This document shows positions 1,508 to 51,938 of a DNA stretch of 64,000 nt, piece after piece (position 1 is the stretch's first letter; each line of letters begins with the position of its first letter). Position numbers and translations under genes: made by a program. The notes beneath the pieces are model-generated. The model had not been told where the DNA came from. It was given only the letters and a program-made list of their open reading frames with translations, and did not search any database. The stretch is taken from the NCBI GenBank assembly GCA_016186955.1, contig JACPKP010000009.1, positions 225,595-289,594 of the forward strand. The letters run 5' to 3'. Source of the stretch: Candidatus Daviesbacteria bacterium. GTDB lineage: Bacteria > Patescibacteriota > Microgenomatia > Daviesbacterales > UBA10151.

Positions 1508-1511
1508 ACAC

Positions 1512-19666: not shown

Positions 19667-19669
19667 ATT

Positions 19670-29873: not shown

Positions 29874-30862
29874 TAATCAGAAATATTATATATGATGCTT
29901 GAACCTGTTTTTTCAAATGCAAAAGGGACATGCAATAACTTATTAAATTTTCTTAAAAACTTTTTTTGCATTGAGGGTTCCACAAAGAAAACGATAAACC
30001 CACCACTGCCTGCTCCGAGTAGTTTACCCCCCAACGCACCAGCGCTGATGCCCTCACTGTAAATCTCATCAATTAACTGGTTACTTATATTAGAAGCCAG
30101 GCTTTTTTTAATTATCCAGTTTTCGTGTAGTAGTTTGCCTAAGGTTTGTGCAGAAAAATTAGTGCCGGTTAACTTTTCGTAAGCTTTGGCTGTAATTTTT
30201 GAAAGAGCATGAAGTTCATTAAATTTGTTTGGCGTATTTTTAATAAGTTGTGCTGAAATGTCCGAAGCTCTTCTCTGGAATCCGGTAAAGAACAAAAGTA
30301 TATATTTCTCAAGAGCTTGTATTCGCGACCTGGATATTGCTAAGGGTTCAACGATAATCTTTCCATTTTTTTGAAATAAAATTCTATTTAAGCCTCCGTG
30401 TGCAGCAATGGTTTGGTCCTGTGAACCTACATTTTCCTTAATTTTATTCTGTTCAATTTCTATGGCGTCTCTTGCCAGTTGTTGTTTTGAAACAGATTTT
30501 CCGAGTAAAGCGTATAAGGAATTTAAAAAACCGACTGTAAAGGATGAGCTGGATCCTAAACCTGACATTGCCGGCAAGTCACTGGTATGAACCATCTCAA
30601 TCCCGGAGTTAATATTTAAGAAGTTAAGCGTTTCTTTTACTGCTGGATGTCTGATCTGGTTTATGGACAAAGTTGTTTCCCTATGGGTATATCGGATCCT
30701 GTATTTATATGGGAAAAAAGGAGGGAGATAACGGGTAACAATATAACAATATTTATTGATTGAAGTGCTGATGACAGATCCACCAAATTTACGATACCAT
30801 ATTGGATAATCAGTTCCTCCCCCAAACAGGGAAATCCGGAATGGTGTTCTGGATATTACCAT
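29873..30862 (-). CDS. hddA: GHMP-family sugar kinase, HddA-like (D-glycero-alpha-D-manno-heptose 7-phosphate kinase)
   Basis: MVISRTPFRISLFGGGTDYPIWYRKFGGSVISTSINKYCYIV...DLPAMSGLGSSSSFTVGFLNSLYALLGK...GSQDQTIAAHGGLN lines up with HddA from Aneurinibacillus/Campylobacter (MIITKTPLRVSFVGGGTD...PSGTGLGSSSAF...GKQDQY). Confidence 0.75.
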   Translation of the reverse strand: MVISRTPFRISLFGGGTDYPIWYRKFGGSVISTSINKYCYIVTRYLPPFFPYKYRIRYTHRETTLSINQIRHPAVKETLNFLNINSGIEMVHTSDLPAMSGLGSSSSFTVGFLNSLYALLGKSVSKQQLARDAIEIEQNKIKENVGSQDQTIAAHGGLNRILFQKNGKIIVEPLAISRSRIQALEKYILLFFTGFQRRASDISAQLIKNTPNKFNELHALSKITAKAYEKLTGTNFSAQTLGKLLHENWIIKKSLASNISNQLIDEIYSEGISAGALGGKLLGAGSGGFIVFFVEPSMQKKFLRKFNKLLHVPFAFEKTGSSIIYNISD

Positions 30863-30871
30863 AAAGATTGT

Positions 30872-31855
30872 TTAAACAAATCTTTTTGCATAAAAGACAT
30901 TATATTTTTTGTTTATAACACTACGTTTTTTCAAAAACCAGTCAATCGTTTCTTTGATCCCTTCCTGTAAACTTACTTTAGGATTATAACCAATAGATTG
31001 TGCCCTTTGGATATCCATAATCCTCATCCTATCTCCGCTTTTTTTTGATTTATCCCAAATTACTTTAGGAGGTTTTTCAATACTTTCGCAAATTGTGCTC
31101 ACCAGCTCTTTTATTGTGACGCCGGTCCCGCTTCCTAAGTTTAAAGCGCTCCCATCAGCATGTTTCATTGCTAAAATCATCCCTTCAGCAACATCCCTTG
31201 AGAAAACAAAATCCCGTATTTCGGATCCGTCCCCCCAAACAGTAAGAGGATTTTCGCCGTCTAGGACCCTTCTGATTAGGGAGGGTACGACCATAGCGTT
31301 TTTAGGATCAAAATTATCATAAGGCCCGTAAGTGTTAGCCGGCCTGACTATTGTTGTTTTGTTCCAGCCAAACTCTATTTTATATGCTTCAACCTGCAAT
31401 TCCCCAACTCTTTTTGCCCATCCGCCAAACCAATCCTTATGGGAGGGGAATGTATGCCATACATCGTCCTCATGAAAAATTTTAGCAGGGCCATAGACTC
31501 CGACAGAGCTTGTGTAAAGATACCTTTTTACTCCACTGATCCGTGCTGCCTCCATCATATTAGTGTTGAACAAAACTCCTGGTACGAAGATACTTGCAAC
31601 TTTTTTTGTTGCGATTCCGGCAGATACTTTAATTCCTGCCAAATGAAAAACATAATCTATGCCGCGGCACGCTTTAATGCAATTATCATATGAAGTAAGA
31701 TTTAGTTTCTTAAACTCTACGTCTTTTGGCAAATCCTTATTCCGTTCCATTGAGACAACCCGGACTTTTGCACCCATTTTGTGAAGAATTTCTACAAGCT
31801 GCATTCCGATCATCCCAGTCCCGCCAGTAATAAGAATTTTTTTATTTTTATACAT
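30872..31855 (-). CDS. NAD-dependent epimerase/dehydratase (extended SDR; candidate GDP-heptose/hexose modifying enzyme)
   Basis: KKILITGGTGMIGMQLVEIL and a YGPAK-type YxxxK block (LYTSSVGVYGPAK). Confidence 0.65.
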   Translation of the reverse strand: MYKNKKILITGGTGMIGMQLVEILHKMGAKVRVVSMERNKDLPKDVEFKKLNLTSYDNCIKACRGIDYVFHLAGIKVSAGIATKKVASIFVPGVLFNTNMMEAARISGVKRYLYTSSVGVYGPAKIFHEDDVWHTFPSHKDWFGGWAKRVGELQVEAYKIEFGWNKTTIVRPANTYGPYDNFDPKNAMVVPSLIRRVLDGENPLTVWGDGSEIRDFVFSRDVAEGMILAMKHADGSALNLGSGTGVTIKELVSTICESIEKPPKVIWDKSKKSGDRMRIMDIQRAQSIGYNPKVSLQEGIKETIDWFLKKRSVINKKYNVFYAKRFV

Positions 31856-31863
31856 GTCTTTTC

Positions 31864-32535
31864 CTAGATTGAATTATTAAATAATTTGTCAAATACTGCA
31901 ACCCCGCGTAGTTGATTAATGCTTGTAATAATTTCATCTGCTTCTGTCAAAAACTCCTGACCCATAGTAGAAGAAACTGCAATACAGTATGCTCCAGCTT
32001 TTTTTGCAGACTTTATTCCCAAGGGTGCGTTTTCTATCACTAAACATTTTTTGATATCTACCGACAATAACTTTGCAGCTTTAAGATAAGGATCCGGGAA
32101 TGGTTTTCCTCTTTTGACTTGGTCACCGGTGATGATAACTTTAAATTTCTTTAAAAAATTTTCAGGTAGTGTTGAGTGTAACCTGTTGTAAAGACCGGCA
32201 GTAACTATGGCAAATGGAATATTTTTTGCGTGTAATAAATTTATTATACTTTTAACGCCCCGATAGAGTTGGAATTTATTGTTCTTCAAATATAGATCCT
32301 CCTTATTTTTAATAATATCTTCTACCAGCGACTTGTCTAACCCGGCCTTTTGGCAATATTTTTTTGCTAATTTTTCTAATTTCATCCCTTCGTAAGGAAA
32401 GTACTCTTGTGCGGAGATAGAAATATTGTATTTTTTCAGCGATTTCAACCAGGCTTTATAATTATCTTCCATTGTTTGGGCCAAAACACCGTCAAAATCA
32501 AACAAAACAGCCTGATATTTTTTTGATGGAATCAT
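31864..32535 (-). CDS. HAD-superfamily hydrolase, subfamily IA (beta-phosphoglucomutase/phosphatase-like)
   Basis: Motif I LFDFDGVLAQT, with later KPFPDPY-type and E-N-A motif III regions. Confidence 0.65.
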   Translation of the reverse strand: MIPSKKYQAVLFDFDGVLAQTMEDNYKAWLKSLKKYNISISAQEYFPYEGMKLEKLAKKYCQKAGLDKSLVEDIIKNKEDLYLKNNKFQLYRGVKSIINLLHAKNIPFAIVTAGLYNRLHSTLPENFLKKFKVIITGDQVKRGKPFPDPYLKAAKLLSVDIKKCLVIENAPLGIKSAKKAGAYCIAVSSTMGQEFLTEADEIITSINQLRGVAVFDKLFNNSI

Positions 32536-33045: not shown

Positions 33046-33806
33046 ACAGCCTTTTTAATAAGCAAAGATTCATTTTCAGCAGAAGGGTTTAAGCTATGGT
33101 GTTTTTTCAAATCCCCAAATGAAATTATATCACCAGTGTCCAGGAGGCATGTTTGAGATCCATCGGTTATATTTCCTGTCAGAAGCACCAAAATATCGGG
33201 TTTTGATTGTTTAGTATGATTTATCAAGTGGTTGCTATCGGAAAACTTGACCAAGCTTAAAATACAGTCACCGAACTGTTTCTCTACCCCGTAACGTTTT
33301 TTACTATTATTAAATGATTGATATAATTTATTGTCAAGCTTTGAATAAAATTTTTCATCCTCATATCCTCTTCCTCGTCTTCCATATTTGTCGCTAAACC
33401 TGATTAAGTCCCTTTTGTTGGTCGGTGTTTCTGTTTCTATCACCAACAACCCATTGTTTGAGGTAACTGTTGTAGAATGAAATACTCCTTTGTTAATAAG
33501 CAATCCATGGCAAAGATTAAGTTTGTGGTTTCCACTGAGCGTTTCAACCCTAGCTTCGCCGGATAAAATAATAATAGAGGTTTTTTTATTAGGATGTGCG
33601 TGCATTGAAGTTTGGAAGTTGGGTTTTAAATAAAGCAGCCATACGGCGGTTTGGTTGTTGGAATAAATCAGATATTCATATCCCCATGGCTTTCTTATTA
33701 CCACATTTGAGTAGTCAAAAAAATTATCCAGGAGGTAATCAGGGTTTATTTTAATACTTGACATCTGTCTGATATCTTCGTCGGTTTGATCAATTTTTTT
33801 TACCAT
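33042..33806 (-). CDS. Metal-binding cupin domain protein (possible sugar isomerase/epimerase)
   Basis: Cupin motif 1 with HxH...E (TSMHAHPNKKTSIIILSGEARVE) and a second beta-rich C-terminal half (possible bicupin). Confidence 0.45.
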   Translation of the reverse strand: MVKKIDQTDEDIRQMSSIKINPDYLLDNFFDYSNVVIRKPWGYEYLIYSNNQTAVWLLYLKPNFQTSMHAHPNKKTSIIILSGEARVETLSGNHKLNLCHGLLINKGVFHSTTVTSNNGLLVIETETPTNKRDLIRFSDKYGRRGRGYEDEKFYSKLDNKLYQSFNNSKKRYGVEKQFGDCILSLVKFSDSNHLINHTKQSKPDILVLLTGNITDGSQTCLLDTGDIISFGDLKKHHSLNPSAENESLLIKKAV

Positions 33807-34746
33807 TGGAATTTATAATATATTCTACTGTCTTTACTATTTTACCTGTTGTAGGGGGGAGGTTGTCCAGATGGGGGGCAAATCCGGCAGACCGTTCTTC
33901 CAGTCCGAGCGTTTTGATTGGTTTAAATTTGTTGCCTGATCCGGTGAGTTTTTGGATTATGTCAAAAGCTAGACATTTCAAAGCTCCATTTTCAAAATCA
34001 CCGTCCAGTATCAGTCCTCCAAACCTGCTTTGATTGAGTGAAGCAATAATTTTTTTATTAATTACAAATGGCTTGAGCCATAGCAGATGTATAAGGTTAC
34101 AAACAATGCCATTTCCCTCTAAGGTTTTAACAGCTTCAATGGCGTTGATTCTAGTTGAAGAAATCGCAAATATAGTAACATCAGCTTTAGGTTTAATAAT
34201 ATCTTTCATGTCATAATCTATAGGGAAACTTTTTTTATGCTCACTGATGTACATCGGGTCATCGTGTTCCATAAAATAATTCCAAACCTGTTGGTATTCG
34301 TTGGGTGTCATGGGGGCACAAACAACAATTCCGGGCATCCTAATAAATATACTGTGGTGGCTACCGGATGCCACAGGCCCGATAGCTCCGTCCATGGCTA
34401 TTGAGCGCACAAAAATAGGGCAGGGAATTCCCCACATATCCTTTGATTTTGCTGCGTAATTGACAATGCTTGCAGCGTTGTACCACTGAAAACCCTGGTA
34501 TCTAACTATATAAATTGGCCTTCTGCCCGCTAAGGCCGCCCCTACAGCTATACCTCCGCCGGATACATCAGCCATTGATAATTCAACAAGGCCTTCTTTT
34601 TCACTTAAGTGAGGGATTGTACCACCGACCCAGCCAACAGCTGTTAGACATTGGCCTAATGCCAAACCGTTATTTTTTAACAGGTGATTTCTGGTTATTT
34701 GGCTTATTTTTTCTGCAACAGTCATTTTTTGAGTTGTTTCTTCCAT
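33790..34746 (-). CDS. Thiamine-diphosphate-dependent 2-oxoacid dehydrogenase E1 beta-subunit-like protein
   Basis: LSMADVSGGGIAVGAALAGRRPIYIV...NYAAKSKDMWGIPCPIFVRSIAMDGAIGPVASGSHHS...PGIVVCAPMTPNEYQQV aligns block-for-block with the PDH/BCKDH E1-beta Pyr domain. Confidence 0.65.
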   Translation of the reverse strand: MEETTQKMTVAEKISQITRNHLLKNNGLALGQCLTAVGWVGGTIPHLSEKEGLVELSMADVSGGGIAVGAALAGRRPIYIVRYQGFQWYNAASIVNYAAKSKDMWGIPCPIFVRSIAMDGAIGPVASGSHHSIFIRMPGIVVCAPMTPNEYQQVWNYFMEHDDPMYISEHKKSFPIDYDMKDIIKPKADVTIFAISSTRINAIEAVKTLEGNGIVCNLIHLLWLKPFVINKKIIASLNQSRFGGLILDGDFENGALKCLAFDIIQKLTGSGNKFKPIKTLGLEERSAGFAPHLDNLPPTTGKIVKTVEYIINSNGKKN

Positions 34747-35606
34747 AATTTATCAATAAATTCTTTCGTTTCCTGTTCGATCTTTAAAGCCTGTTTTTCT
34801 AACCCCAAATTTTTAAGATCTTCTTTGACTATTTTAAATCTGTCCCATTCTGGTTCGCTATCTTGTCCGGTGCCATTGTGCCAAAGCACCCTTGTTGTAT
34901 GGATATTTATAAAGCTAGGTAAATTTTTAGCAAGCTTTTTGACATGATGCATAATAAGCCAGGGATCATCGGTGATTTCTACCGCATCCATTCCAAATGC
35001 TTTTGCAACATTAACCATACTCCAGTTTCTTCTAACTGCGACTTTGGTTAAAATTGAAAGTCCATTATCAGTGCAAACAAACAAAACAGGAAGTTTTTTT
35101 GAAGCAGCATAGCCCATTGAACTTATCACATAGTCTTCTTCTGCCGAAGCATCCCCCATAATTGCCAAGACTTTTTGTTTTGACCCCAATGCATATCCTA
35201 CTGCGATTGGAATTTGGTCTCCCATAAGCCCGCTATGGCCAAACATGCCAATCTTCGGGGAATGAATTGATGCAGACCCACCCATGCCTTTGGCGATGCC
35301 GGAAGGCTTGTGCAGTAGTTCGTCAATTAAAGGGACAATTTCTCCCCCGAAAGCTAAATAAATATCATGGCATCTGTGTTGGGCAAAAATATGCGGTTTT
35401 TTATAAGCTATTGATATTGCTGATGAAACAGATTCTTCACCAACTGATAAATAAATCGGCATTTTAATATAACCTTTATCAAAGGCATCTTTGGTATTGA
35501 ATTCGAAATTGCGCGAGATGCACATTTTTTTAAACATCTCCAAAGACTCTTTCTTAGTAAAATGTTTTGAGATATTTTTGATTTCACCGAAGCTTTTTGA
35601 ACGCAT
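34722..35606 (-). CDS. Thiamine-diphosphate-dependent 2-oxoacid dehydrogenase E1 alpha-subunit-like protein (TPP-binding)
   Basis: KGMGGSASIHSPKIGMFGHSGLMGDQIPIAVGYALGSK...LAIMGDASAEEDYVISSMGYAASKKLPVLFVCTDNGLSI aligns with E1-alpha (KGKGGSMHMY...GGNGIVGAQVPLGAGIALA...YGDGAANQG...LPCIFICENNRYGMGT). It is overlapped and coupled with the beta subunit. Confidence 0.65.
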   Translation of the reverse strand: MRSKSFGEIKNISKHFTKKESLEMFKKMCISRNFEFNTKDAFDKGYIKMPIYLSVGEESVSSAISIAYKKPHIFAQHRCHDIYLAFGGEIVPLIDELLHKPSGIAKGMGGSASIHSPKIGMFGHSGLMGDQIPIAVGYALGSKQKVLAIMGDASAEEDYVISSMGYAASKKLPVLFVCTDNGLSILTKVAVRRNWSMVNVAKAFGMDAVEITDDPWLIMHHVKKLAKNLPSFINIHTTRVLWHNGTGQDSEPEWDRFKIVKEDLKNLGLEKQALKIEQETKEFIDKLWKKQLKK

Positions 35607-35657: not shown

Positions 35658-37001
35658 TTATGTTATTCCCAGATTCTCGAAACTATTATAAAGTTTTAAG
35701 TCTTGTTCACTATCGACTTCATACCAATTACCATTAATTGGTGTAGCAAAAATTTGTAACCCTGTCTTAATAAGCCTTTGCAACAGGGAAGTCATGTCCA
35801 GCTTATCATTGGTGTTTGGATCCAGTGATGCAAGATATTTTTTTATTTTTTTCCAACCGGAAGGGGTGATTTTTAGAAGCCCCATATATTGGCCCTCAAT
35901 ATTTTCAAATTTGTCGGTTTTGTTACCAATTTCCAGCAACACGCCATTTTTTATTTTAAATGTTTCTGCGTCATCTAAAGGATTATTAAATCTTTTTTTC
36001 CATAGATTAAACCAGTTTTTATCATAGGATATTGATACATTACCTTTTGATTTAAGAAGACTTTTCACTGCTTGTTCTGAATAAACAATATCCGAGTAAC
36101 TTATAATACAAGTATAACGGCTGAGCCATTTATCTGCGCACATTAACGAGCTTACCATATTGGTTTTCTTCCAGCGTGGATTGTTAAAAGTTTTTAGATT
36201 AAAGGGTTGTAGTTTTTTTGCTTGATAGCCTGATACTAATGCTATATCTTGGATACCGCCTTTTCTGAGTGCATTAAGCTGCCACTCAATTAGGGGTTTT
36301 CCTTTAAGCATTACTAAACATTTAGGCTTTTTAGCTGTCAATCTTTTCATCCTACTTCCCCGCCCGGCTGCAAGAATGATTGCTTTAGGCGCCTCATGTT
36401 TTTGGGACTCTAAAAAGAATGATTTGAATAAATTGACATTGTCTTTTCTAAATGGCTCCATTCTTTCGGGGTGCCACATAATTGCTTTTATTTTATATTT
36501 TGTATGCTCAATAGCTTTGATGACATTATCTTCTGACCTGGCCCAAACAGTCAGATCATCTGTTGTGTTTAAACTGCCCAAGCAGTGGTAGCTGTTGACA
36601 GTACTTTGTTTCCGGTTGATTGCTATCCTCTGTTTATTTGCAATGTGGCCCTGTACTATTATAAGTTTGACACCAAAATAATCCTGGATTATCTGCATGC
36701 CCCGGCAGACGCCAAAAAGAGGAATATTGTTTTTTATAGAATAAGAAATAAGATATCTTTCAACATCATCTCTTTCTGGTGCAGTTCCACCATATTTGGA
36801 CAGATCATTTCCTCCAGTAAGTAAAAAACCGCTTATTTTCAAGTTTTTAAGATAATTTTTTATTAAATCTATATTATTTGGTAAAAGAGCAGGAATTAGA
36901 TTACATTGAATAAAAAATTTATTCCAATTTTGGGACAGCGTATCCAGTCTTTCTCCGTGTTGGTTGATTACTACATTTTGGGTGACGCCTATAAATTCCA
37001 T
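35658..37001 (-). CDS. Fusion of a class-I glutamine amidotransferase-like hydrolase (Cj1417-like gamma-glutamyl-CDP-amidate hydrolase) to a LicC/MobA-like nucleotidyltransferase (Cj1416-like CTP:phosphoglutamine cytidylyltransferase)
   Basis: N-terminal 200 aa: a peptidase-C26/GATase-1 fold with nucleophile LFGVCRGMQ and an H-E dyad (MWHPER). C-terminal 245 aa: AIILAAGRGSRMKRLTAKKPKCLV (GxGxR sugar-phosphate nucleotidyltransferase motif). Confidence 0.65.
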   Translation of the reverse strand: MEFIGVTQNVVINQHGERLDTLSQNWNKFFIQCNLIPALLPNNIDLIKNYLKNLKISGFLLTGGNDLSKYGGTAPERDDVERYLISYSIKNNIPLFGVCRGMQIIQDYFGVKLIIVQGHIANKQRIAINRKQSTVNSYHCLGSLNTTDDLTVWARSEDNVIKAIEHTKYKIKAIMWHPERMEPFRKDNVNLFKSFFLESQKHEAPKAIILAAGRGSRMKRLTAKKPKCLVMLKGKPLIEWQLNALRKGGIQDIALVSGYQAKKLQPFNLKTFNNPRWKKTNMVSSLMCADKWLSRYTCIISYSDIVYSEQAVKSLLKSKGNVSISYDKNWFNLWKKRFNNPLDDAETFKIKNGVLLEIGNKTDKFENIEGQYMGLLKITPSGWKKIKKYLASLDPNTNDKLDMTSLLQRLIKTGLQIFATPINGNWYEVDSEQDLKLYNSFENLGIT

Positions 37002-37005
37002 TGGA

Positions 37006-39336
37006 TTATGATACTATTTTTACTTGCTTGTTAATACAATCTATTTCTAAAAACCGGGAGGATGAAAGATTAGAAAATAAAGTTTCTCCTGTCCCGATAA
37101 CAGCCGGTATACCCAACTCTCCCGCCCGGATCGCCATATGAGAATTAATACCTCCATACATAGTGATAAATCCGGCGATTTCGTGAGAGAAAATCCAATC
37201 ATACCCAGGATCGGCGCTTGGAATAAGTAAAATACTTTTTTTAATTTTTTTTAAATCCTGATTGGAGAAAGCAACATGCCCCTTGGCTGTTTGGTTAGTA
37301 ATAAAATTGGGATGAGATGGAGCGATATGGAAGGACCAAATATCTTCTGCGCTTTTTATTAACGGGGGAAGAATTATGTTGCTCGTTATTGAAAAATTTC
37401 TTTTTCCTTCTTCTATCGATTGCAACATCACATTTTTTTTATCAAAGCTTGATGTGTATAACTTCTTGATACAGTTAATGTCTAAAAATGCTAAATCTGT
37501 ATCACTGATGGAATATGAGGCGCCCAGGTTTTGAAGCAGGGACAAAAGATCGCTTAGCGAATAGGTAAAAATAAATTTAGCATACTCCCTGCCGTAGATT
37601 GCTTCTTTTATAAAATCAAATATCCCCAGGATATTGTGATCAATCCCATGCTTGTTTAAATATCGGTCTATTTGTTTTAGTTGTTCCAATGATAGACTGA
37701 ATTTACTTTTTTGCTCGGGGGGCCTTTTAAATTTTTTAAAATCAAAATATTTGTTTGGTTCTTCATCATAACGCTTGGATAAAATATCATAAGTTCCAGG
37801 ACGCAGGTGCCCATATTTTTTTAAAAAGTTTTTTTTGGACAACTTATTTAAATCCTTATTCATTTGGGAACTGATCGAATCTATTGAAAGCATAAAATTA
37901 TCATAATCTGCTTGGGATAGAATTTTCTCGGTAACTAATGATTTTAAAAGCTGGACAGCTATAAAGCCTGCCCTGGCAAGTCCTGCAAAAGGTAAGGTCC
38001 CATACCTCTTGCAATCCTCTAGCAGCCAATAAATTTTTGAAACAATGTCTAATTCGCTACCCAATATAGTTTTACGTCTTCTTTCAAGTTGATTAATTTT
38101 TTCAAGGTCTGTCCGCCAAAGCCCGGTTTTATTGTTAATAATCTGATTAGTTAGTGTCCTGAGACTTTCAATTAAGGATTTACATTCTTCGTTTGAGAAT
38201 CCGTCTTTTTTTAATAAATTTATTTTTGTATCTAAATCAAAAGTGTAACAAGAATAGACTATTTCAAATTCAATTTTATCATGAAGATTGGGTTGTTTAA
38301 TCAGTTTTTTTAAATAATAGTTAACTAATTTCTCAGCCAAATTTTGGTTCACTGTGGATGGTATAAAAGAGTTGAAATCAACTCTGACATCAATGTAGGG
38401 AAGTCCATGAAAATCTACTAATAGAGGAAAACTCCTTAAATTCTTATATCCATAATTATGTCTTTGGTAAGCCCAAATACCGTCCGTTATCAGTTCTTTG
38501 TATAGAGATAGCGCTAAAGGTTTGGGTCTGATACCAATAATTTCTGCAGGATTCCAGTCTGGCATGATACCGAACACCGTTTTTGATCCGCAAAGATAAG
38601 GATGTTTTCGGCTTAGGTCCCCAATTTTGTTATCTACTTCCACTAATACACTTGAAAGTTGGTCTATGTCCACATCCATTTTTATGAAACTGTTAAGAGG
38701 ACGGGCTTGCAAAAGATAGAGATGGTTTTGATAATCCAAAGCGAATTCAATATCCAAACTGTCAGATTTTGTTATTGACTCTAACTCAAAAATTAAATTA
38801 ATAATTTTTACTAACCTTATGGGAGCTTTTTTGGAGGAGTATTTATAAAAATAGTATGTTTTTAACTTATTTGATTTTCCTGAAGTTACAGAATCTGTCG
38901 ATCCTGTTTGGTCATCGTAGTTTATTACAATGTATGGACTTCCTGTATTTGGATCTTTACTAAAAGCTACACCTGACATCATGATATTTTTAAAATTAAG
39001 ATATGGTTGTATAAAAACTTGATTTTTTGGATTTTGATCAAAAGAGGAGATAACTTTTTCTATCGCTTCGTTTATCTTCGGTATACCTACAATATTTTGT
39101 ATAGAGGTATAGCGGCCTGCCAGAGACTGGTTAACACTGTCTTCATTGACTGCGCTACTTCGGATAATTAATTTTTTTTTACCCCACCCCTTTTTTTTGA
39201 TTTTTTCTAAAATATGGTTTTTTTTATCTATCCAGTCACCAACGGAAAAACTAATTTGTGGTAAGACCCGAGCCTTTTTCAGCAGCAGAGAAAGTTTTTG
39301 AAGCGTTTCCGCCTTTGTCACAAAAAAGTCATTCAT
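37006..39336 (-). CDS. PEP-synthase/PPDK/rifampin-phosphotransferase-like ATP-dependent kinase, Cj1418-like (candidate L-glutamine kinase)
   Basis: 776 aa. The C-terminal PEP-utilising mobile domain has a catalytic His (ITMYGGINSHMAIRAGELGIPAVIGTGE) about 40 residues from the C-terminus, as in Cj1418 (His737). There is a large N-terminal ATP-grasp/PPDK_N-like region. Confidence 0.65.
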   Translation of the reverse strand: MNDFFVTKAETLQKLSLLLKKARVLPQISFSVGDWIDKKNHILEKIKKKGWGKKKLIIRSSAVNEDSVNQSLAGRYTSIQNIVGIPKINEAIEKVISSFDQNPKNQVFIQPYLNFKNIMMSGVAFSKDPNTGSPYIVINYDDQTGSTDSVTSGKSNKLKTYYFYKYSSKKAPIRLVKIINLIFELESITKSDSLDIEFALDYQNHLYLLQARPLNSFIKMDVDIDQLSSVLVEVDNKIGDLSRKHPYLCGSKTVFGIMPDWNPAEIIGIRPKPLALSLYKELITDGIWAYQRHNYGYKNLRSFPLLVDFHGLPYIDVRVDFNSFIPSTVNQNLAEKLVNYYLKKLIKQPNLHDKIEFEIVYSCYTFDLDTKINLLKKDGFSNEECKSLIESLRTLTNQIINNKTGLWRTDLEKINQLERRRKTILGSELDIVSKIYWLLEDCKRYGTLPFAGLARAGFIAVQLLKSLVTEKILSQADYDNFMLSIDSISSQMNKDLNKLSKKNFLKKYGHLRPGTYDILSKRYDEEPNKYFDFKKFKRPPEQKSKFSLSLEQLKQIDRYLNKHGIDHNILGIFDFIKEAIYGREYAKFIFTYSLSDLLSLLQNLGASYSISDTDLAFLDINCIKKLYTSSFDKKNVMLQSIEEGKRNFSITSNIILPPLIKSAEDIWSFHIAPSHPNFITNQTAKGHVAFSNQDLKKIKKSILLIPSADPGYDWIFSHEIAGFITMYGGINSHMAIRAGELGIPAVIGTGETLFSNLSSSRFLEIDCINKQVKIVS

Positions 39337-39344
39337 AATTTATC

Positions 39345-39391
39345 TCGATAAAACCCCGACCGTTAAGTCGTAGGTAGATTCATTTTATCGA
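39345..39391 (-). promoter_or_regulatory. Nested inverted repeat (possible intra-operon RNA stem-loop / processing or attenuation site)
   Basis: A perfect 9-bp IR tcgataaaa ... ttttatcga (39345-39353 / 39383-39391) encloses an inner GC hairpin cgac-cgttaa-gtcg (39357-39370). It spans the MTase stop codon and the 43-bp gap before the Gln-kinase-like gene. Confidence 0.2.
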
Positions 39392-40138
39392 TTGGACTGT
39401 CCAGGCACGTGTTTTGTAAGCTGTTCGAATAAGGTTTTTACTGGATATAATTTTGGAAATTTCTTTTAAAATTTTTTGAAAAATTAATTTTCCTGCCTGG
39501 ACTTGGATGTCGTTTACAGATCTCCAGACCCCTAAGTATCTCTCTTTGGACATCAATTCAAAATGAGGAGCCTCCATAAAAACTAAATTTTTAAATTTTT
39601 TTCCGGAAGTTAAAACCTCCCCCCAGTTTTTTGTATTAGTTTGGGACCCTGAAGAAACTCTTTTAAGATTTGGAATAAAATTTTTAATAATTAATTCCAC
39701 AGCTTTTTCTACCTCGCTTTTTTCAATATCTCTCGGGTTCCACAAAATTGTAAGAAAACCGCCTGGTTTAAGTATACGGTAAAACTCCTTTAAGGCTTTT
39801 TTAGAATCTGCCCAATGGAAAGAAGAGGCCATCATAACCCAATCTACAGATGAATTTTTGAGACCTGTATCTTCTGCAATTCCTTTAGACCACATAAAGT
39901 TTTTTACAGACTTTTCACCTATTATCCTCATGTTGTTGCTTGGTTCAACTGCAAACCCCCCAATCCCAAAACAATCTAACATTGAGGTTAATTTACCTGT
40001 TCCAGCCCCAATGTCCGCAACAACAAAGCCCTCTTTTAGGGCGCCTATATAAGAGATAAGTGTTTTAATAATTATGGGAGAATAGCCTGGCCTGTTTGAA
40101 TAGTACTTTGCAAGAATAGAAAAATCTCCGTGTTTCAT
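39380..40138 (-). CDS. Class I SAM-dependent methyltransferase (candidate phosphoramidate O-methyltransferase)
   Basis: Motif I VVADIGAGTGKLT. It sits between the CysC-like and Gln-kinase-like genes and is coupled to both. Confidence 0.65.
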   Translation of the reverse strand: MKHGDFSILAKYYSNRPGYSPIIIKTLISYIGALKEGFVVADIGAGTGKLTSMLDCFGIGGFAVEPSNNMRIIGEKSVKNFMWSKGIAEDTGLKNSSVDWVMMASSFHWADSKKALKEFYRILKPGGFLTILWNPRDIEKSEVEKAVELIIKNFIPNLKRVSSGSQTNTKNWGEVLTSGKKFKNLVFMEAPHFELMSKERYLGVWRSVNDIQVQAGKLIFQKILKEISKIISSKNLIRTAYKTRAWTVQSIK

Positions 40139-40644
40139 TTTAATTTTAAAACTTGACGTACAATTTCATCAGGTAATTTTTTACCGTCATTTTTAATGAC
40201 CATATCGGGATTTAAAGGTATTTCTGGTTTTATGTCAACCCCTACTACATCTTTAATTTTTCCTGCATGATATTTTTTATATATTTTCTTGAGGTCTCTG
40301 CCAAATAAAACTTTCTTAGGAGCTGTAAGATAAATTTCCTTATAATTTTTAATAAACCTTCTATTCCAATTATGGCAATCATGGAAAAGGGAAATCGTTG
40401 CGCAGACAACATCTAACCCTTGATCTGAAAGCATTTTGCAAATCCTTGAATAAGTTTTAGCTAGTATCCTGCGGTCATTTATAGTGTGACTATGGAGATT
40501 ACCGAAAACCTTTCTCAGCTTATCTCCATCTAAATAAACTACGTTTTTACCGGAAGCCTGCAGTTTTTTATACAGTGCAAATCCAACTGTAGTTTTTCCG
40601 GTTCCGGAGATTCCGGTAATCCACCAAACAACCCCTTTTTTCAT
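40135..40644 (-). CDS. Adenylylsulfate (APS) kinase-like P-loop kinase, Cj1415-like (candidate cytidine diphosphoramidate 3'-kinase)
   Basis: VVWWITGISGTGKTTVGFAL...VYLDGDKLRKVF...RRIL is collinear with CysC (VIWLTGLSGSGKSTLA...LDGDNIR...RR). Confidence 0.7.
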   Translation of the reverse strand: MKKGVVWWITGISGTGKTTVGFALYKKLQASGKNVVYLDGDKLRKVFGNLHSHTINDRRILAKTYSRICKMLSDQGLDVVCATISLFHDCHNWNRRFIKNYKEIYLTAPKKVLFGRDLKKIYKKYHAGKIKDVVGVDIKPEIPLNPDMVIKNDGKKLPDEIVRQVLKLK

Positions 40645-41987
40645 CAGTTTATAGGTAATAGCTTTACCATAACTTGTTTTTTATTATAAAGATCAAACCA
40701 TGCTTTATAAGCCCAAAAACGGATAGCAAAATAATCCCTAATAATTAGTATTAAAAAGACAATAACCAGTATTGGTGTAAAGATTATAATAAATATAGCC
40801 AAAAGTATTTTTATCGCTACGGGATACTTTTGATAAACAGATATAACTTGTGTTGCCAAACTACTGTCAATGCTTCTTATGATAAACATTACCTTCTTTT
40901 GCGAGAGTTTAATTTGTTTTTGTGTGAAAAAAACAAGACGTTCTTTTAAAAGAGAAAACTCTGTTTTAAAAGGTAAAGCTAATGTTAAAAAAACAAATAG
41001 CTTGAGTAATTTATTTCTATACATATTACTTATTTTATACTCCCAATGCTTATACTTAGGATATGCTAGGCACAGCAGCCGAAATTGGTCAAAGCTGTTT
41101 AAATAACTTATTTTTCTATCAATAGTCTGGATTCCGATGCCGGAAATTCTTGGTGACTCAGGTCTATTCCACCATTTCTTACCGTCAAAAGTACTCTCCA
41201 AAAGATGGTTGTCCCAGGGAAGGTTTAACCATTTGCAGATTGCTCTCAAGGTCTCTTTATTTTTTTGGTGTAAATCTTCTAAACGGACCGCTTTTGAGAA
41301 TTTAGTGTAACTACTAAAAAAGGGTCTGAAACCATAGACATAGCGCTCCTCCTTTTTTCCCCAAAGTTGCATGTAATCACAAAGCATTTGAGAAACAGTG
41401 CATTCTAGAGTATTTACCGGAAGATTATTGAACAGGATGTGTTTAATCCCGGAGTTGATAGATGGGATGGGCGCCCTAACCATGTGCAGGAATTTTGCTT
41501 TGGGAAAATCAGATAAAAGATATTGAGCATGTTTTTTGGGTAGGCTGTGAATAGGAAAGAAGATTACTTTTGGTTGATGAATTTTTCTACCTAAAGCATA
41601 GGCATAAGAGAGGTAGGTAGCAATAAAAAAATTTTTTCTGGATGGATAAATTTTGCCCAAAAGATTTTTTAATAAACCACTAAAATGTTTTTCTTTAATA
41701 CAGACAGATTGATTCATTCTGGGTCCAAGCTGGTTTAGACCATGGCTTTCGGGAGCGCCTTTTTTAGTAAACCAATATTTATGATAGTCGGTAAAAGCAT
41801 TAATTAATTCCTCTGATCTAGAATACCTTTTACCATAACTTTCCCAAAAAGCAAAAAAAGATCTGCTATATAGGGCTGGAGTCATTAAAACTTTTGGGTG
41901 ATTGTCAAACAAGCTATGTAAAAAAAGGGTGCCACTGGAGCCATAGTTTTGGACAGCTACAACTGAGATATTTTTTGGAATTCTCAT
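40644..41987 (-). CDS. Sulfotransferase-fold protein with a C-terminal membrane anchor (candidate phosphoramidate transferase, or a genuine sulfotransferase)
   Basis: The N-terminal 5'-PSB-like P-loop VQNYGSSGTLFLHSLFDNHPKV resembles PRSGTTLLHxLLxxHPxV of Sulfotransfer_3 enzymes. The C-terminus has 2 TM segments (LKLFVFLTLALPF..., AIKILLAIFIIIFTPILVIVFLILII). Confidence 0.5.
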   Translation of the reverse strand: MRIPKNISVVAVQNYGSSGTLFLHSLFDNHPKVLMTPALYSRSFFAFWESYGKRYSRSEELINAFTDYHKYWFTKKGAPESHGLNQLGPRMNQSVCIKEKHFSGLLKNLLGKIYPSRKNFFIATYLSYAYALGRKIHQPKVIFFPIHSLPKKHAQYLLSDFPKAKFLHMVRAPIPSINSGIKHILFNNLPVNTLECTVSQMLCDYMQLWGKKEERYVYGFRPFFSSYTKFSKAVRLEDLHQKNKETLRAICKWLNLPWDNHLLESTFDGKKWWNRPESPRISGIGIQTIDRKISYLNSFDQFRLLCLAYPKYKHWEYKISNMYRNKLLKLFVFLTLALPFKTEFSLLKERLVFFTQKQIKLSQKKVMFIIRSIDSSLATQVISVYQKYPVAIKILLAIFIIIFTPILVIVFLILIIRDYFAIRFWAYKAWFDLYNKKQVMVKLLPIN

Positions 41988-42898
41988 AAAATATTTTTGT
42001 TGTACCAGGTAATAGTTTTTTTGATGCCATCTTCAATCTTTGTTTTTGGAACCCAGTTAAATACTTTTTTACAGTAGGAAGTGTCCATTACTTTATAAGG
42101 TGACCCATCAGGTTTTGAAGTATCGAAAACTAACTTTCCTCTAAAACCAGCAGCAACTTGAATCATCAAGGCAAGTTTTTTTATGGAAATTCCAATTCCT
42201 GAAGAGATATTAATAGGGAAAGGATCTGTACGGGTTTTGATTGATTTGATAAATGCTTCAACAAGGTCATCTACATAGACCCAATCCCTCACCGGTTTAC
42301 CGCTTCCCCAGACGGTAACTTCTTTTAAAGAGTTTTCTTTTGCATCCATAATTTTTCTGATAAGCGCACCCAGGGCATAAGATTTTTCGGGGTCAAAATA
42401 ATCATCGGGCCCGTAAACATTTCCTACAATCAAGTTTGAGTACTGTATTCCAAACTGTCTGTTAAATGCCATGGAATTAATATATGTATGCCTGCTGGTT
42501 GAGCCTATGACTAGGACCGATTCATGCATTGGGCCATTTCCCCAGAACTGTTCTTTCAAGAGACCATTATTTACCGGTGGGTAAGCTGAATTTGATAATA
42601 TATTAATTAATTTTTCAACCCCTGATAGTCTGGCGGATTCCTGAAGATTTAAACTAACTAAAGTGTTATTTATAAATATTTCCCCCGGATGTTTGTTGAC
42701 ATAGGAAATACCTCCGGTATCTATTGCGCAATTTATTATTATTTGAGGTTTTTGTTTTTTAAAGAATATTTTAGCTTGGTTAAGGTTTTTAAAATTAATT
42801 TTACCTGAGGTTATAACATTATAACCTCTGGTTTTTAATATTTTTACAGTTCTTTTGCCAATAAATCCGCCTGCTCCGGCAACGAAGATTCTTTTCAT
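41984..42898 (-). CDS. fcl: GDP-L-fucose synthase-like (Fcl/WcaG family) NDP-4-keto-6-deoxy-sugar epimerase/reductase
   Basis: MKRIFVAGAGGFIGKRTVKIL...LNQAKIFFKKQKPQIIINCA parallels the E. coli Fcl N-terminus (KQRIFIAGHRGMVG...LLDSRAVHDFF...IDQVYLAA). It has a short Rossmann start and is about 300 aa. Confidence 0.6.
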   Translation of the reverse strand: MKRIFVAGAGGFIGKRTVKILKTRGYNVITSGKINFKNLNQAKIFFKKQKPQIIINCAIDTGGISYVNKHPGEIFINNTLVSLNLQESARLSGVEKLINILSNSAYPPVNNGLLKEQFWGNGPMHESVLVIGSTSRHTYINSMAFNRQFGIQYSNLIVGNVYGPDDYFDPEKSYALGALIRKIMDAKENSLKEVTVWGSGKPVRDWVYVDDLVEAFIKSIKTRTDPFPINISSGIGISIKKLALMIQVAAGFRGKLVFDTSKPDGSPYKVMDTSYCKKVFNWVPKTKIEDGIKKTITWYNKNIL

Positions 42899-46932: not shown

Positions 46933-47718
46933 CTAAATTCCTAAAAATTGAACCAAGTTGTTATGCAAAATTGGGTTAGAAGCCAGTATTGACTCATCAC
47001 TGATTGTCCATTGTTCATTTCTTAAGTTTGTCACAATTCCCCCTGCTTCCCTGATAATTACCACCGCTGCAGCCATATCCCAAGGTTCCAGGCTGGTTGC
47101 CATATATGCATGCATCTTACCCTCTGCTGTAAGAGCAAGTGGAACAGAGGCACAACCTGAAGAGAAGTTGCAGGTGATGCCATCAGGGCTCAGCAACCTT
47201 TCTAGATATTTTATATCCCCGGTTCTATTTAATTTTCCAAAATCGATTCCCATGAGTGTCCTGTTGAGGTCTATGTTTTGTGCTACCTGTATTGGTTCAT
47301 TGTTTTTGCTTGCGCCACCTTTAGCAAAAGCCACATAAAGATCATTTCTTTTAGGTGCATAGATTACACCCAAAACTGGATTTAATCCTTCCGCAAGGGA
47401 TAAACAGACGCTGAAATGGTCGTTGATGCCGGAGGTATATAGAAGGGTACCATCCAGCGGATCTACTACCCAATTAAGCTTTGATCCCATATCCCGGTCA
47501 ATGTTTTCTTCAGAGAGGATATTATGCGAAGGAAACCGTTTGATTATCGCCTCCCTGATTAAGTTGTCACTTAAATCATCAACCTCAGTTTTAAAATTGG
47601 TACGAAGTTTCCATTCCAGTCTGTGCATTTTTTCGAAATTATCCATTAACAACTCTCCTGCCTTAAGGCTTAAGTCAACAGCAAAATCTTTATATAAAAT
47701 TAACTCAGATTCAGTCAT
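46933..47718 (-). CDS. Inositol monophosphatase / CysQ-family phosphatase (candidate 3'-phosphonucleotide phosphatase)
   Basis: The family motifs are SEEN (metal-binding EE), WVVDPLDGT and WDMAAAVVIIREAGG. Confidence 0.65.
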   Translation of the reverse strand: MTESELILYKDFAVDLSLKAGELLMDNFEKMHRLEWKLRTNFKTEVDDLSDNLIREAIIKRFPSHNILSEENIDRDMGSKLNWVVDPLDGTLLYTSGINDHFSVCLSLAEGLNPVLGVIYAPKRNDLYVAFAKGGASKNNEPIQVAQNIDLNRTLMGIDFGKLNRTGDIKYLERLLSPDGITCNFSSGCASVPLALTAEGKMHAYMATSLEPWDMAAAVVIIREAGGIVTNLRNEQWTISDESILASNPILHNNLVQFLGI

Positions 47719-48930: not shown

Positions 48931-49728
48931 TTGAGCATGGTGGAAAAAATTACTGTTAACAATATCGCAAGTGTGGGAATTATTTATAGAGAGTCGGACC
49001 CAAAAAGTATTTTTATAGATATAAAAGATGGCGGGTATCCAATTAAGGCGTTTAGGTGGATGCACTGCCCTATTGGCGGCAACTGGATTGGCAAAAATGC
49101 ACTTGCTGATGCTAATCCCTTAGCAACTTTCCGCCGGGAACTTCATGAGGAACTATCGTTTGAAAAAGAAAGGATTTCCACCGGAGAAATGAAGCAGCTG
49201 GGTATTGACTGCGAACAACAATCCTACACTGTACCCAAAAAAGATGCAATACCAACAGAAAAAGATCACGAAAGCTTAAATTATCTAAAACTTATTTTTA
49301 CAAATGACGCTCAGCCTTTTGGAGACTTTAGGGTAACTGTCCCAAAATCAATATTTGATAAGGGTGTGCCAGATAATAAGCTAGGGGATACTGCGTCTTT
49401 ACTCCCCTACTATCTAGTGTCTGTTAAGGAAAATGACTGGCGGACACTTGAGTATCTGCATGAAAAATTCGGCAATCTTTCAGTAGAGTCCTTAGCTGTT
49501 ATTACCTCACTTGATGAGATAATCAGCACACCAAGATATACCTGTTGCGGACATGATAGGATTATGAAAGAATTTTTTACACAAATGGGTTGTGCCGGCG
49601 CCTGCCAATACCCGCTTCTTGAAGGCATTACCTGTGAGCCTATGGGAATGCCGTTTGACTCATATGATAAATACCTTGAATATTATGAGGTTTTGCGCCA
49701 CCCTTTTAGTAGTTCTCTTCGTGCATGA
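48931..49728 (+). CDS. Hypothetical protein with a degenerate Nudix-like box
   Basis: GKNALADANPLATFRRELHEELSF approximates Gx5Ex7REUxEExGU, with E to D, G to S and a one-residue insertion. Otherwise I cannot recognise it. Confidence 0.3.
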   Translation: MSMVEKITVNNIASVGIIYRESDPKSIFIDIKDGGYPIKAFRWMHCPIGGNWIGKNALADANPLATFRRELHEELSFEKERISTGEMKQLGIDCEQQSYTVPKKDAIPTEKDHESLNYLKLIFTNDAQPFGDFRVTVPKSIFDKGVPDNKLGDTASLLPYYLVSVKENDWRTLEYLHEKFGNLSVESLAVITSLDEIISTPRYTCCGHDRIMKEFFTQMGCAGACQYPLLEGITCEPMGMPFDSYDKYLEYYEVLRHPFSSSLRA

Positions 49729-50714: not shown

Positions 50715-51938
50715 TCAAGGATGAAGTTTTTTAAACATATAGATTTGGAAAAAAATCATTATAATCTTGGAGACAATCTTTGCAAGCACTACTCCCAATA
50801 ACCCGAGTGTAGGTAGAAGTATTAAAAAAGGTAATATTGTTGCTACGAATTGAACAATGCTGCTAAGGTAAAGACTTTGGGTGGACTTTACATGGATGTT
50901 GGCGAGTCCCAATAAATTAGTAGGATAGTATAATAGCGAGAGGGAGAAAAGTTGCGAAAGGAAAACTGCGCTATTTTTGTAACTGGGGTATAAAATGTCG
51001 AAAATAGAAGGTGCGCTTAGCAAATACAAAATTACGATTGACAGGACTAAAATCTCCAGTTGAAATGCCTTTTTATATAAATTTTTTTTAAGTTGTATCT
51101 TGCTTGAGGCAGCTATTTTAGGTTGACCCAAAGTTAAAAAAATTTTAAAAAAATTATGAATTTGGCTGGGTATCAAAATTGCAAAAGCATAAACAGCATT
51201 AGCAGTAAACCCTAAGTATATAGGAATTAAAAACTTGTCTAAATATTCAGGAATGGTAGTTATTAAGTTACCAAGGCTCAAGTTCAAACCAAATTTAAGA
51301 GCTTTTTTATCAAATCTTTTATTTTTTACTTTTCCGAAAGAATAAAGGGTTAAGATTATATTTATAACTGCCGTTGACCATGCAGAAAAAAGAGCAACCA
51401 GAACCAAAGAGGAAAATTGCCATAAAGCAATGCCTGTTGCAATAATGGAAACATACTGGGCAATAAATGAGTAAAACGCCCAATTTTTAAAATCCCTTTT
51501 TCCGTTTAAAAAAGGTTGGAAAAAATTGAAACAGGCGCTTATTGGGAAAACTAAAGCGCTAACAAATATTGCCAACCCAAGCGCAGGGTTACCCCTTAAG
51601 TAAAAATACAGCGAACCGAATGTCAAAAGCGACATACCCAAAAGAGACCATTTGAATGCTATTTTGATAGCTTCTCTATAAATCCCATCATTGCCTTTTG
51701 CCACTTCCTGCACAATCATTGGCGACAATCCCGGTACAGTTGTAAAACTCATCAATGCGAGTACAGACATTAAAAAAGAAAACTGCCCGTAGACATCAGA
51801 CGGCCACAACCTGGAAAAAAGGGATGAGAGTATTATCCCACCGATTGTGGTTGCAAACAAACTTAAAGTAATCCAAAAACCACCCTTAATGAAATAATTT
51901 AAATCCAGCCCCAAAATATTTGATAATCTGTAAATCAT
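50715..51938 (-). CDS. wzx: Wzx-like oligosaccharide flippase / polysaccharide biosynthesis protein (MOP superfamily)
   Basis: 407 aa with about 12 TM helices and an N-terminus LSNILGLDLNYFIKGGFWITLSLFATTIGGIILSSLFSRLW typical of Wzx/RfbX. Confidence 0.6.
   Translation of the reverse strand: MIYRLSNILGLDLNYFIKGGFWITLSLFATTIGGIILSSLFSRLWPSDVYGQFSFLMSVLALMSFTTVPGLSPMIVQEVAKGNDGIYREAIKIAFKWSLLGMSLLTFGSLYFYLRGNPALGLAIFVSALVFPISACFNFFQPFLNGKRDFKNWAFYSFIAQYVSIIATGIALWQFSSLVLVALFSAWSTAVINIILTLYSFGKVKNKRFDKKALKFGLNLSLGNLITTIPEYLDKFLIPIYLGFTANAVYAFAILIPSQIHNFFKIFLTLGQPKIAASSKIQLKKNLYKKAFQLEILVLSIVILYLLSAPSIFDILYPSYKNSAVFLSQLFSLSLLYYPTNLLGLANIHVKSTQSLYLSSIVQFVATILPFLILLPTLGLLGVVLAKIVSKIIMIFFQIYMFKKLHP

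Follow-up and report, generated by a model that had tools for sequence, protein, structure and literature searches.

The 64,000-nucleotide stretch of the Candidatus Daviesbacteria contig JACPKP010000009.1 analysed here (the window) encodes a 447-residue protein which is annotated as a sulfotransferase and is probably a phosphoramidate transferase. We infer that it uses 3'-phospho-cytidine-5'-diphosphoramidate (3'-phospho-CDP-amidate), a look-alike of the sulfotransferase cofactor 3'-phosphoadenosine-5'-phosphosulfate (PAPS), to decorate a sugar hydroxyl. This function is considered the most likely because of the position of the gene inside a complete pathway for the PAPS look-alike, as known for the O-methyl phosphoramidate (MeOPN) modification of Campylobacter jejuni. 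Both the pathway and the reaction are known; the transferase family is distinct in sequence, annotated as sulfotransferase, and widespread outside Campylobacter. Positions refer to the whole window and residue numbers to the 447-residue target protein unless stated otherwise.

Fold, active site and genomic setting

An earlier note on this DNA, made from its letters, had described an open reading frame (ORF) at 40644–41987, and the ORF is present exactly as given, on the minus strand and encoding 447 residues. The same note had read the N-terminus as a 5'-phosphosulfate-binding (5'-PSB) loop of the Sulfotransfer_3 type within a sulfotransferase fold, and both readings have held up. The Pfam family Sulfotransfer_3 (PF13469) matches residues 18–259 with an E-value of 5.1e-14, which is far beyond chance as the score of 53.5 bits compares with a cutoff of 27. 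This is the sole Pfam match of the protein, and no NCBIfam family matches at E ≤ 0.01. A 100% identical protein is annotated by NCBI as 'sulfotransferase [Candidatus Daviesbacteria bacterium]'. The AlphaFold model, built on 50 homologues, reaches a mean predicted local distance difference test (pLDDT) score of 94.5 and a predicted template modelling (pTM) score of 0.90. When this model was compared with the PDB using Foldseek, the top 15 matches were exclusively PAPS sulfotransferases, all with probability 1.0 at 13–16% identity, including the sulfotransferase domain of CurM, TPST1/2, and an olefin-synthase sulfotransferase. When PDB sequences were searched with a profile of the 50 homologues, CurM (E 1.9e-11) and TPST1/2 (E about 1e-9) were likewise retrieved; the loop of the profile aligns to their 5'-PSB loops, with the CurM and TPST alignments spanning profile positions 17–64 and 157–268. 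As modelled, the target therefore has a sulfotransferase fold.

The catalytic domain is followed by a helical C-terminal domain (residues 298–447). The two transmembrane helices that had been proposed for this region stand only in part. Residues 388–420 form a strongly hydrophobic stretch of ~30 residues, modelled as helices 389–402 and 404–432 with a break at Pro405; the second segment, residues 326–339, is short and amphipathic. The model thus favours an anchor of the hairpin or monotopic kind over two clear membrane spans. The anchor is missing from distant family members and from fusions of the domain to a kinase.

The active site was compared across 50 family sequences, to which all column counts refer. 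The loop at residues 15–33 reads YGSSGTLFLHSLFDNHPKV, of which residues 15–31 (YGSSGTLFLHSLFDNHP) form the 5'-PSB-type loop. Here, G16-S17-S18-G19-T20 aligns with the P-R-S-G-S/T loop of CurM ('SSPRSGSTLL') and TPST ('GVPRSGTTLM'), and G19 is kept in 50/50 sequences. Ser17 of the target takes the place of an Arg in CurM (Arg39) and TPST (Arg78), and this column of the family holds Ser in 17 sequences, Arg in 14, Pro in six, and Ile in three, besides others. Loss of the basic residue was considered as a mark of the whole family and rejected, given the Arg-bearing members. A 3'-phosphate-binding motif, which the earlier note had named as a feature to be looked for, was found in Arg171 (50/50) and Ser179 (49/50), which align with 'VRHPYSVIES' of CurM and 'VRDGRASVHS' of TPST. 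Further downstream, RLEDLH…WLNLPW of the target aligns with the YEDL…FLxIPW motif of both enzymes.

The residues associated with sulfuryl transfer have changed. We take Arg39 and Glu60 to be the catalytic residues of CurM, an assignment that reportedly goes back to McCarthy et al. in 2012. At the position of the CurM glutamate base (PPELH) the target has Ala38, and the 50 sequences have Ala, Gly or Asn but never an acidic residue. In the cytosolic sulfotransferases (SULTs), the catalytic His108 precedes Arg130 by a distance similar to that between His147 and Arg171 of the target, and on this spacing His147 is a candidate catalytic base. The family also carries a signature, STFDGKxWWN, that is not present in ordinary sulfotransferases. 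As aligned, these sequences appear to have kept 3'-phospho-nucleotide binding while altering the sulfuryl-transfer residues, which fits a PAPS-like donor with a different transferable group.

Such a donor would be supplied by the neighbouring genes. The target lies in a minus-strand operon in which the stops and starts of neighbours overlap, and it is translationally coupled to the cassette. The stop of the upstream epimerase gene overlaps the start of the target (ATGA), placing the two in one operon, and the target stop overlaps the start of the next gene as TGATG. That gene encodes the CysC homologue which the earlier note had seen beside the target, and it is indeed a member of the Pfam family APS_kinase/CysC (40135–40644). 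It scores 173.9 bits on NCBIfam PRK05541 (cutoff 127), falls under every cutoff for genuine adenosine-5'-phosphosulfate (APS) kinases, and is 40% identical to C. jejuni Cj1415, the protein that defines PRK05541 and scores 292 bits on it. The kinases of all other cassettes examined also pass PRK05541 and fail the genuine apsK cutoff. The methyltransferase encoded next is 48% identical to Cj1420 and 36% to Cj1419 of C. jejuni, making it a candidate O-methylase of the phosphoramidate. The L-glutamine kinase is 45% identical to Campylobacter Cj1418, and its homologues are named 'glutamine kinase' in some sources. The last member of the cassette combines a Cj1417-like hydrolase (residues 1 to ~200 of that protein, 36% identity) with a Cj1416-like cytidylyltransferase (~205–447, 39%). 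Its hydrolase domain scores 129.8 bits on NCBIfam NF045546, under the cutoff of 250. All cassette enzymes are thus present beside the target at 36–48% identity to their C. jejuni counterparts. From these orthologues and the assignment of the kinase to the Cj1415 type, it follows that the neighbourhood holds a complete set for 3'-phospho-cytidine-5'-diphosphoramidate. PMC6429109 gives an overview of the donor pathway, as do the Taylor and Raushel papers to which PMC12409886 refers. A search of PDB sequences with the window proteins detected no MeOPN-pathway enzymes.

Two kinds of fusion occur among the biosynthetic enzymes. The hydrolase–cytidylyltransferase fusion of the window, itself 447 residues long, catalyses consecutive steps, for each of which C. 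jejuni and every other inspected locus has its own gene. Elsewhere, glutamine kinase–APS_kinase fusions of about 930–990 residues (P0111, P0145, P0146, P0157, P0160, P0167, and P0168) unite the first biosynthetic step with the last in a single polypeptide.

The association of the target family with this cassette extends well beyond the window. The family comprises 914 clusters at 50% identity (E ≤ 1e-30). Among 19 distinct loci carrying a family member, 16 have the glutamine-kinase cassette adjacent and one is too short to judge. The linked loci cover the candidate phyla radiation (CPR), Elusimicrobiota, Delta-, Alpha- and Gammaproteobacteria, Coxiellaceae, and Firmicutes. Homologues 31–45% identical to the target lie in the same cassette in Elusimicrobiota, Deltaproteobacteria, a TARA ocean contig, and a 6.3 Mb genome. 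A motif scan with STFDGKxWWN alone, limited to one genome per species, returned 12 loci. In 11 of these the complete cassette lies next to the gene in the same orientation, and the loci include those of the cultured Eilatimonas milleporae DSM 25217 and Fusibacter bizertensis WBS. The TARA locus (L007) follows the C. jejuni gene order, and two sulfotransferase-like (ST-like) paralogues occupy the places of Cj1422 and Cj1421.

The ST-like domain also occurs in fusions. P0006 and P0007, both homologues of the target, combine it with a Cj1415-type kinase (PRK05541, 192 bits) and are thus Rosetta-stone fusions. In F. bizertensis WBS (L020:7412-11158), a glycosyltransferase family 2 (GT2) domain and an ST-like domain share one frame of about 1,250 residues directly upstream of the kinase, methyltransferase, C26 hydrolase, cytidylyltransferase, and glutamine kinase genes, an arrangement that, judged from sequence, points to a glycan acceptor.

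A reciprocal test used four glutamine-kinase loci (L023–L026) picked without reference to the target. All four have a sulfotransferase-fold gene at the cassette edge. One gene belongs to the target's own family (314 bits), and the other three represent different sulfotransferase-like lineages. Since the genes in L024–L026 are not members of that family, recruitment seems to have involved three or more ST-like lineages. In L023, from the cultured Clostridium sp. MB40-C1 (CP133189.1, 757470-777815), the whole cassette and a target-family member lie between flagellin genes, and the phosphoramidate of this strain may sit on a flagellin glycan and not on a capsule. The homologue encoded there (L023:6530–7687, 385 residues) lacks the membrane anchor.

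Together, the fold, the orthology of the neighbours, the cassette linkage, and the kinase fusions support the phosphoramidate transferase that the earlier note had proposed. In the resulting mechanism, the fused cytidylyltransferase and hydrolase would convert the product of the glutamine kinase to CDP-L-glutamine and then to cytidine diphosphoramidate, to which the Cj1415-type kinase would add the 3'-phosphate to complete the PAPS look-alike. The target, anchored on the cytoplasmic side of the membrane through its hydrophobic segment, would bind this donor as sulfotransferases bind PAPS, with Arg171 and Ser179 gripping the 3'-phosphate and the G-x-S-G loop gripping the 5'-diphosphoramidate. 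The phosphoramidyl group would then be moved to a hydroxyl of a probably lipid-linked sugar, possibly with His147 as the base, releasing cytidine 3',5'-bisphosphate. O-methylation by the Cj1420-type methyltransferase, before or after transfer, would give MeOPN. Authors from the Raushel laboratory are said to have likened the 3'-phospho-CDP-amidate cofactor to PAPS.

Campylobacter transferases and known sulfotransferases

Cj1421 and Cj1422 have been shown genetically to be the MeOPN transferases of C. jejuni (PMC9561416, PMC3907429). As of PMC12409886 (2025, Raushel laboratory), the sugar-transfer step of MeOPN biosynthesis had not yet been reconstituted in vitro. References for comparison were obtained with the published cj1420 primer CS-1246 (PMC3907429) as an exact probe, which matched two Campylobacter metagenome contigs and nothing among genome contigs. 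One of the two, L004, shows the NCTC 11168 arrangement hddA–gmhA2–hddC–Cj1422–Cj1421–Cj1420–Cj1419 and encodes a 612-residue protein with 100% identity to 'DUF2972 domain-containing protein [Campylobacter jejuni]'. The Cj1415 reference was taken from a full C. jejuni locus (L010). On a further Campylobacter contig, from a house martin (L005:5729-8256), a cytidylyltransferase–phosphoenolpyruvate (PEP)-mutase fusion and a phosphonopyruvate-decarboxylase-like gene directly follow the Cj1416 homologue, so that a phosphonate module adjoins the MeOPN module at the place held by Cj1415 in C. jejuni NCTC 11168.

The target is outside the Cj1421/Cj1422 family as currently defined. BLASTP finds no significant similarity between the target and Cj1421 or Cj1422, and the target matches neither NF058596 ('O-methyl phosphoramidate transferase') nor DUF2972; the score of the C. 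jejuni protein is 688 bits for the former, and for the latter, which is all that Pfam sees in Cj1421/Cj1422, its E-value is 1e-72. The Campylobacter enzymes have a helical N-terminal region of ~220 residues (DUF8374) and a DUF2972 C-terminus. The target lacks both; its core is instead of the Sulfotransfer_3 type, and it carries a C-terminal helical domain and a membrane anchor. The genes also differ in their poly-G phase-variation tracts, as cj1421 and cj1422 carry G9 tracts whereas the target gene contains no G or C run of six or more. The target family is spread across many phyla, in contrast to the listed matches of the Cj1421 family (top 120), which are all from Campylobacter. An orthologue of Cj1421/1422 in this neighbourhood, which the earlier note had held to speak against its proposal, did not appear when a profile of 22 Cj1421-family proteins was run against all six-frame ORFs of the window. 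Across the loci compared, the two types are mutually exclusive, with no DUF2972 protein in any ST-like locus and no ST-like protein in the Campylobacter loci.

Despite this, the two groups share a setting, each being encoded beside cj1415–cj1420 orthologues, with the same gene order in L007 as in C. jejuni. They may share a scaffold as well. The alignment of the Cj1421 family contains a G-x-S-G loop with an invariant G253, a VLFLVRDP motif followed by Ser or Thr eight residues after R333 in 18/22 sequences, and a YIDMEEI…P motif. A profile of the family had no match among PDB sequences. These motifs suggest that the Campylobacter enzymes use the same scaffold as the target, and the target probably shares the Cj1421/Cj1422 scaffold.

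Among characterised enzymes, the closest to the target in structure and sequence are the sulfotransferase domains of CurM and olefin synthase together with TPST1/2, with E-values of about 1e-6 in Foldseek and of 1.9e-11 to 1e-8 in the profile search. Shared with the target are the layout of the PSB loop, a 'VRxP…S' motif for the 3'-phosphate, and a 'YEDL…P…L…FL.I.W' motif. In contrast, the target is only 13–16% identical to them, replaces the PSB-loop Arg with Ser and the Glu base with Ala38, and adds an insertion of ~80 residues after the PSB helix, the STFDGKxWWN signature, and a C-terminal domain of ~150 residues. Its genomic partner is the CDP-amidate pathway and not the PAPS pathway. More distant are SULT1E1, the heparan sulfate N-sulfotransferase (NST), and the 3-O-sulfotransferase (3-OST), for which Foldseek matches are much weaker (E 1e-3 to 5e-2). 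These have the same P-loop-like α/β fold binding a 3'-phospho-nucleotide, and NST and 3-OST act on carbohydrates, the acceptor class proposed for the target. The distance of ~24 residues between His147 and the 3'-phosphate Arg resembles the His–Arg spacing in SULTs; the lysine of PKSGTTW is lacking, and no C-terminal 3'-phosphate-binding motif of the form GxxGxxK was identified in the target.

Alternative functions

Some points weigh against a phosphoramidate transferase. The PSB-loop Arg is retained by 14/50 family members, the residue equivalences with CurM, TPST, and SULTs derive from hidden Markov model (HMM) alignments, and two loci (L006 and L017) carry a family gene without a glutamine kinase within 10 kb. 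The first of these would suit a PAPS-dependent carbohydrate sulfotransferase which adds sulfate to the same glycan and has nothing but its location in common with the phosphoramidate genes. The Sulfotransfer_3 threshold is passed, the fold and the 3'-phosphate Arg and Ser are those of PAPS enzymes, and the NCBI name is 'sulfotransferase'. Nonetheless, we regard sulfation as quite improbable. The only APS-kinase-like gene near the target is of the Cj1415 type and fails the genuine apsK cutoffs, and the target has neither the PSB-loop Arg/Lys nor the Glu base of CurM/TPST. ATP sulfurylase or CysD/N domains are absent from window ORFs of about 100 residues or more across the 64 kb, and from the Pfam-annotated genes of L001, L002, L006–L008, and L023–L026. 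In 16/19 loci, which cover many phyla, the gene is found together with the glutamine-kinase cassette, and fusions link it to the Cj1415-type kinase. Furthermore, if the ST-like gene is set aside, no transferase candidate is left in these cassettes, because DUF2972 is absent from them.

The target could instead bind the 3'-phospho-nucleotide donor or by-product while another protein of the island performs the glycan transfer. It might then modify a lipid, a protein or a small molecule, or hydrolyse or sequester the cofactor. The glycan is a candidate acceptor, the C-terminal helical domain (298–447) has no known function, and L006 and L017 lack biosynthesis genes nearby. The location of the Clostridium locus (L023) in a flagellin island also makes a protein-linked glycan possible. 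A role of this kind is unlikely, though a little less so than sulfation, as the cassette has no further conserved gene of unknown function as its companion from locus to locus, the domain is linked to glycan assembly by its in-frame fusion with GT2 in Fusibacter, and the position and the duplication in L007 mirror Cj1421/Cj1422, which are genetically shown transferases (PMC9561416, PMC3907429). Least probable of all, and by our estimate very doubtful, is that the module makes a different 3'-phospho-nucleotide donor, from which the ST-like enzyme moves, for example, a phospho-amino-acid or plain phosphate. Functions of the window enzymes are assigned by sequence, the C26 domain scores 129.8 bits against an NCBIfam equivalog cutoff of 250, and the hydrolase and cytidylyltransferase, separate in C. 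jejuni, form one protein. Against this, each of the five enzymes shows 36–48% identity to the corresponding C. jejuni protein, they occur in the same cassette, and the glutamine kinase reaches 986 bits on its family model. Hence, transfer of a phosphoramidate remains the preferred function of the target.

Surrounding features and significance

Nearly the whole window (1-64000) is a glycan island, with more than 15 glycosyltransferases, and it also holds sugar-nucleotide enzymes. Adjoining the cassette is a split transketolase/E1-type thiamine pyrophosphate (TPP) enzyme pair (E1_dh and Transket_pyr; 33790-35606, minus strand). The same pair stands beside the cassette in distant loci (L001:2772-4756, L002:8276-9902, and L008:3094-4146) and may build a two-carbon branch on the acceptor sugar. 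The Elusimicrobiota cassette contains a CysQ-type 3'(2'),5'-bisphosphate nucleotidase (TIGR01331, 227.9 bits; L001:15523-16296), which would be expected if cytidine 3',5'-bisphosphate were the by-product of transfer. An Inositol_P gene of the window (46933–47718, minus strand) was considered for the same recycling role and rejected. Its best score is HisN/IMPase-like and it is only 26% identical to the CysQ-like gene of the Elusimicrobiota cassette, so it is not counted in the module.

Table. Features of the target protein, its operon, the remaining window, and ST-like genes of other loci
Feature	Position	Strand	Basis or remark
Target gene, candidate phosphoramidate (PN/MeOPN) transferase	40644..41987	-	447 aa, ATG start; sulfotransferase fold (modelled)
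Catalytic sulfotransferase-like domain, residues 1 to about 297	41097..41987	-	Pfam match; modelled β-α-β pattern
5'-PSB-type loop, residues 15–31	41895..41945	-	G16, S18, G19 conserved
His147, candidate catalytic base	41547..41549	-	49/50 sequences; 24 residues before Arg171
3'-phosphate-binding motif, Arg171 and Ser179, eight residues apart	41451..41477	-	HMM alignment
Family signature STFDGKKWWN, residues 265–274	41166..41195	-	S265 and W272 invariant
C-terminal hydrophobic membrane anchor, residues 388–420	40728..40826	-	Kyte-Doolittle scan
NAD-dependent sugar epimerase/reductase, upstream of target	41984..42898	-	Pfam Epimerase, E 1e-34
Cj1415-type kinase (cytidine diphosphoramidate 3'-kinase homologue)	40135..40644	-	APS_kinase/CysC homologue (Pfam)
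Cj1420-type S-adenosylmethionine (SAM) methyltransferase	39380..40138	-	Pfam Methyltransf_11; ATGA overlap with kinase
L-glutamine kinase (Cj1418 orthologue), 776-aa PEP-utilising enzyme	37006..39336	-	PRK05849, 986 bits
γ-Glutamyl-CDP-amidate hydrolase and CTP:phosphoglutamine cytidylyltransferase fusion	35658..37001	-	Pfam Peptidase_C26 and NTP_transf_3
PMT/PMT_2-type membrane transferases (three)	14-1507, 1479-3140, 53580-55187		
Wzm/Wzt-like ABC-2 exporter	18878-20389		
Flippase	50715-51938		
UDP-glucose-dehydrogenase–epimerase fusion	23082-25337		
GHMP kinase/nucleotidyltransferase/HAD genes	29163-32535		Reminiscent of heptose pathway
Four ORFs (265–518 aa)	25334-26278, 48931-49728, 56889-58310, 58351-59907		No Pfam match at E ≤ 1e-3 to 1e-4
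Shorter ST-like genes (293–399 aa) outside the target's family	L024:12706-13749, L025:6787-7668, L026:12664-13863		

The phosphoramidate decoration of Campylobacter glycans is a phage receptor and a serum-resistance factor. In Xanthomonas campestris and Shewanella, the lipopolysaccharide bears an unmethylated phosphoramidate, according to work cited in PMC3907429. Transfer of the phosphoramidate onto sugar is known only genetically, for C. jejuni Cj1421/Cj1422, and a literature search found no paper tying this step to a sulfotransferase fold. The target family offers a compact, Pfam-recognisable, and confidently modelled transferase candidate, with soluble relatives in cultured bacteria that make the chemistry testable. 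If the proposed function is correct, the PAPS-analogue logic of the pathway would gain a structural basis.

A broader reading is that the sulfotransferase fold is a general scaffold for phosphoramidyl transfer, with several ST-like lineages recruited to use 3'-phospho-CDP-amidate instead of PAPS. These lineages would be the target family (>900 clusters), at least two others found beside glutamine-kinase cassettes, and the DUF2972 enzymes of Campylobacter. The odds of this reading are about even. If true, many 'sulfotransferases' in databases would be mis-annotated, and MeOPN-type decoration of glycans and flagellin glycans would be widespread in environmental bacteria, including CPR/Patescibacteria. 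As for the target family itself, roughly 900 clusters (50% identity) labelled 'sulfotransferase' are probably phosphoramidate transferases. The analysis also indicates that the rare P–N glycan decoration probably occurs across many phyla and reaches an ultra-small CPR bacterium.

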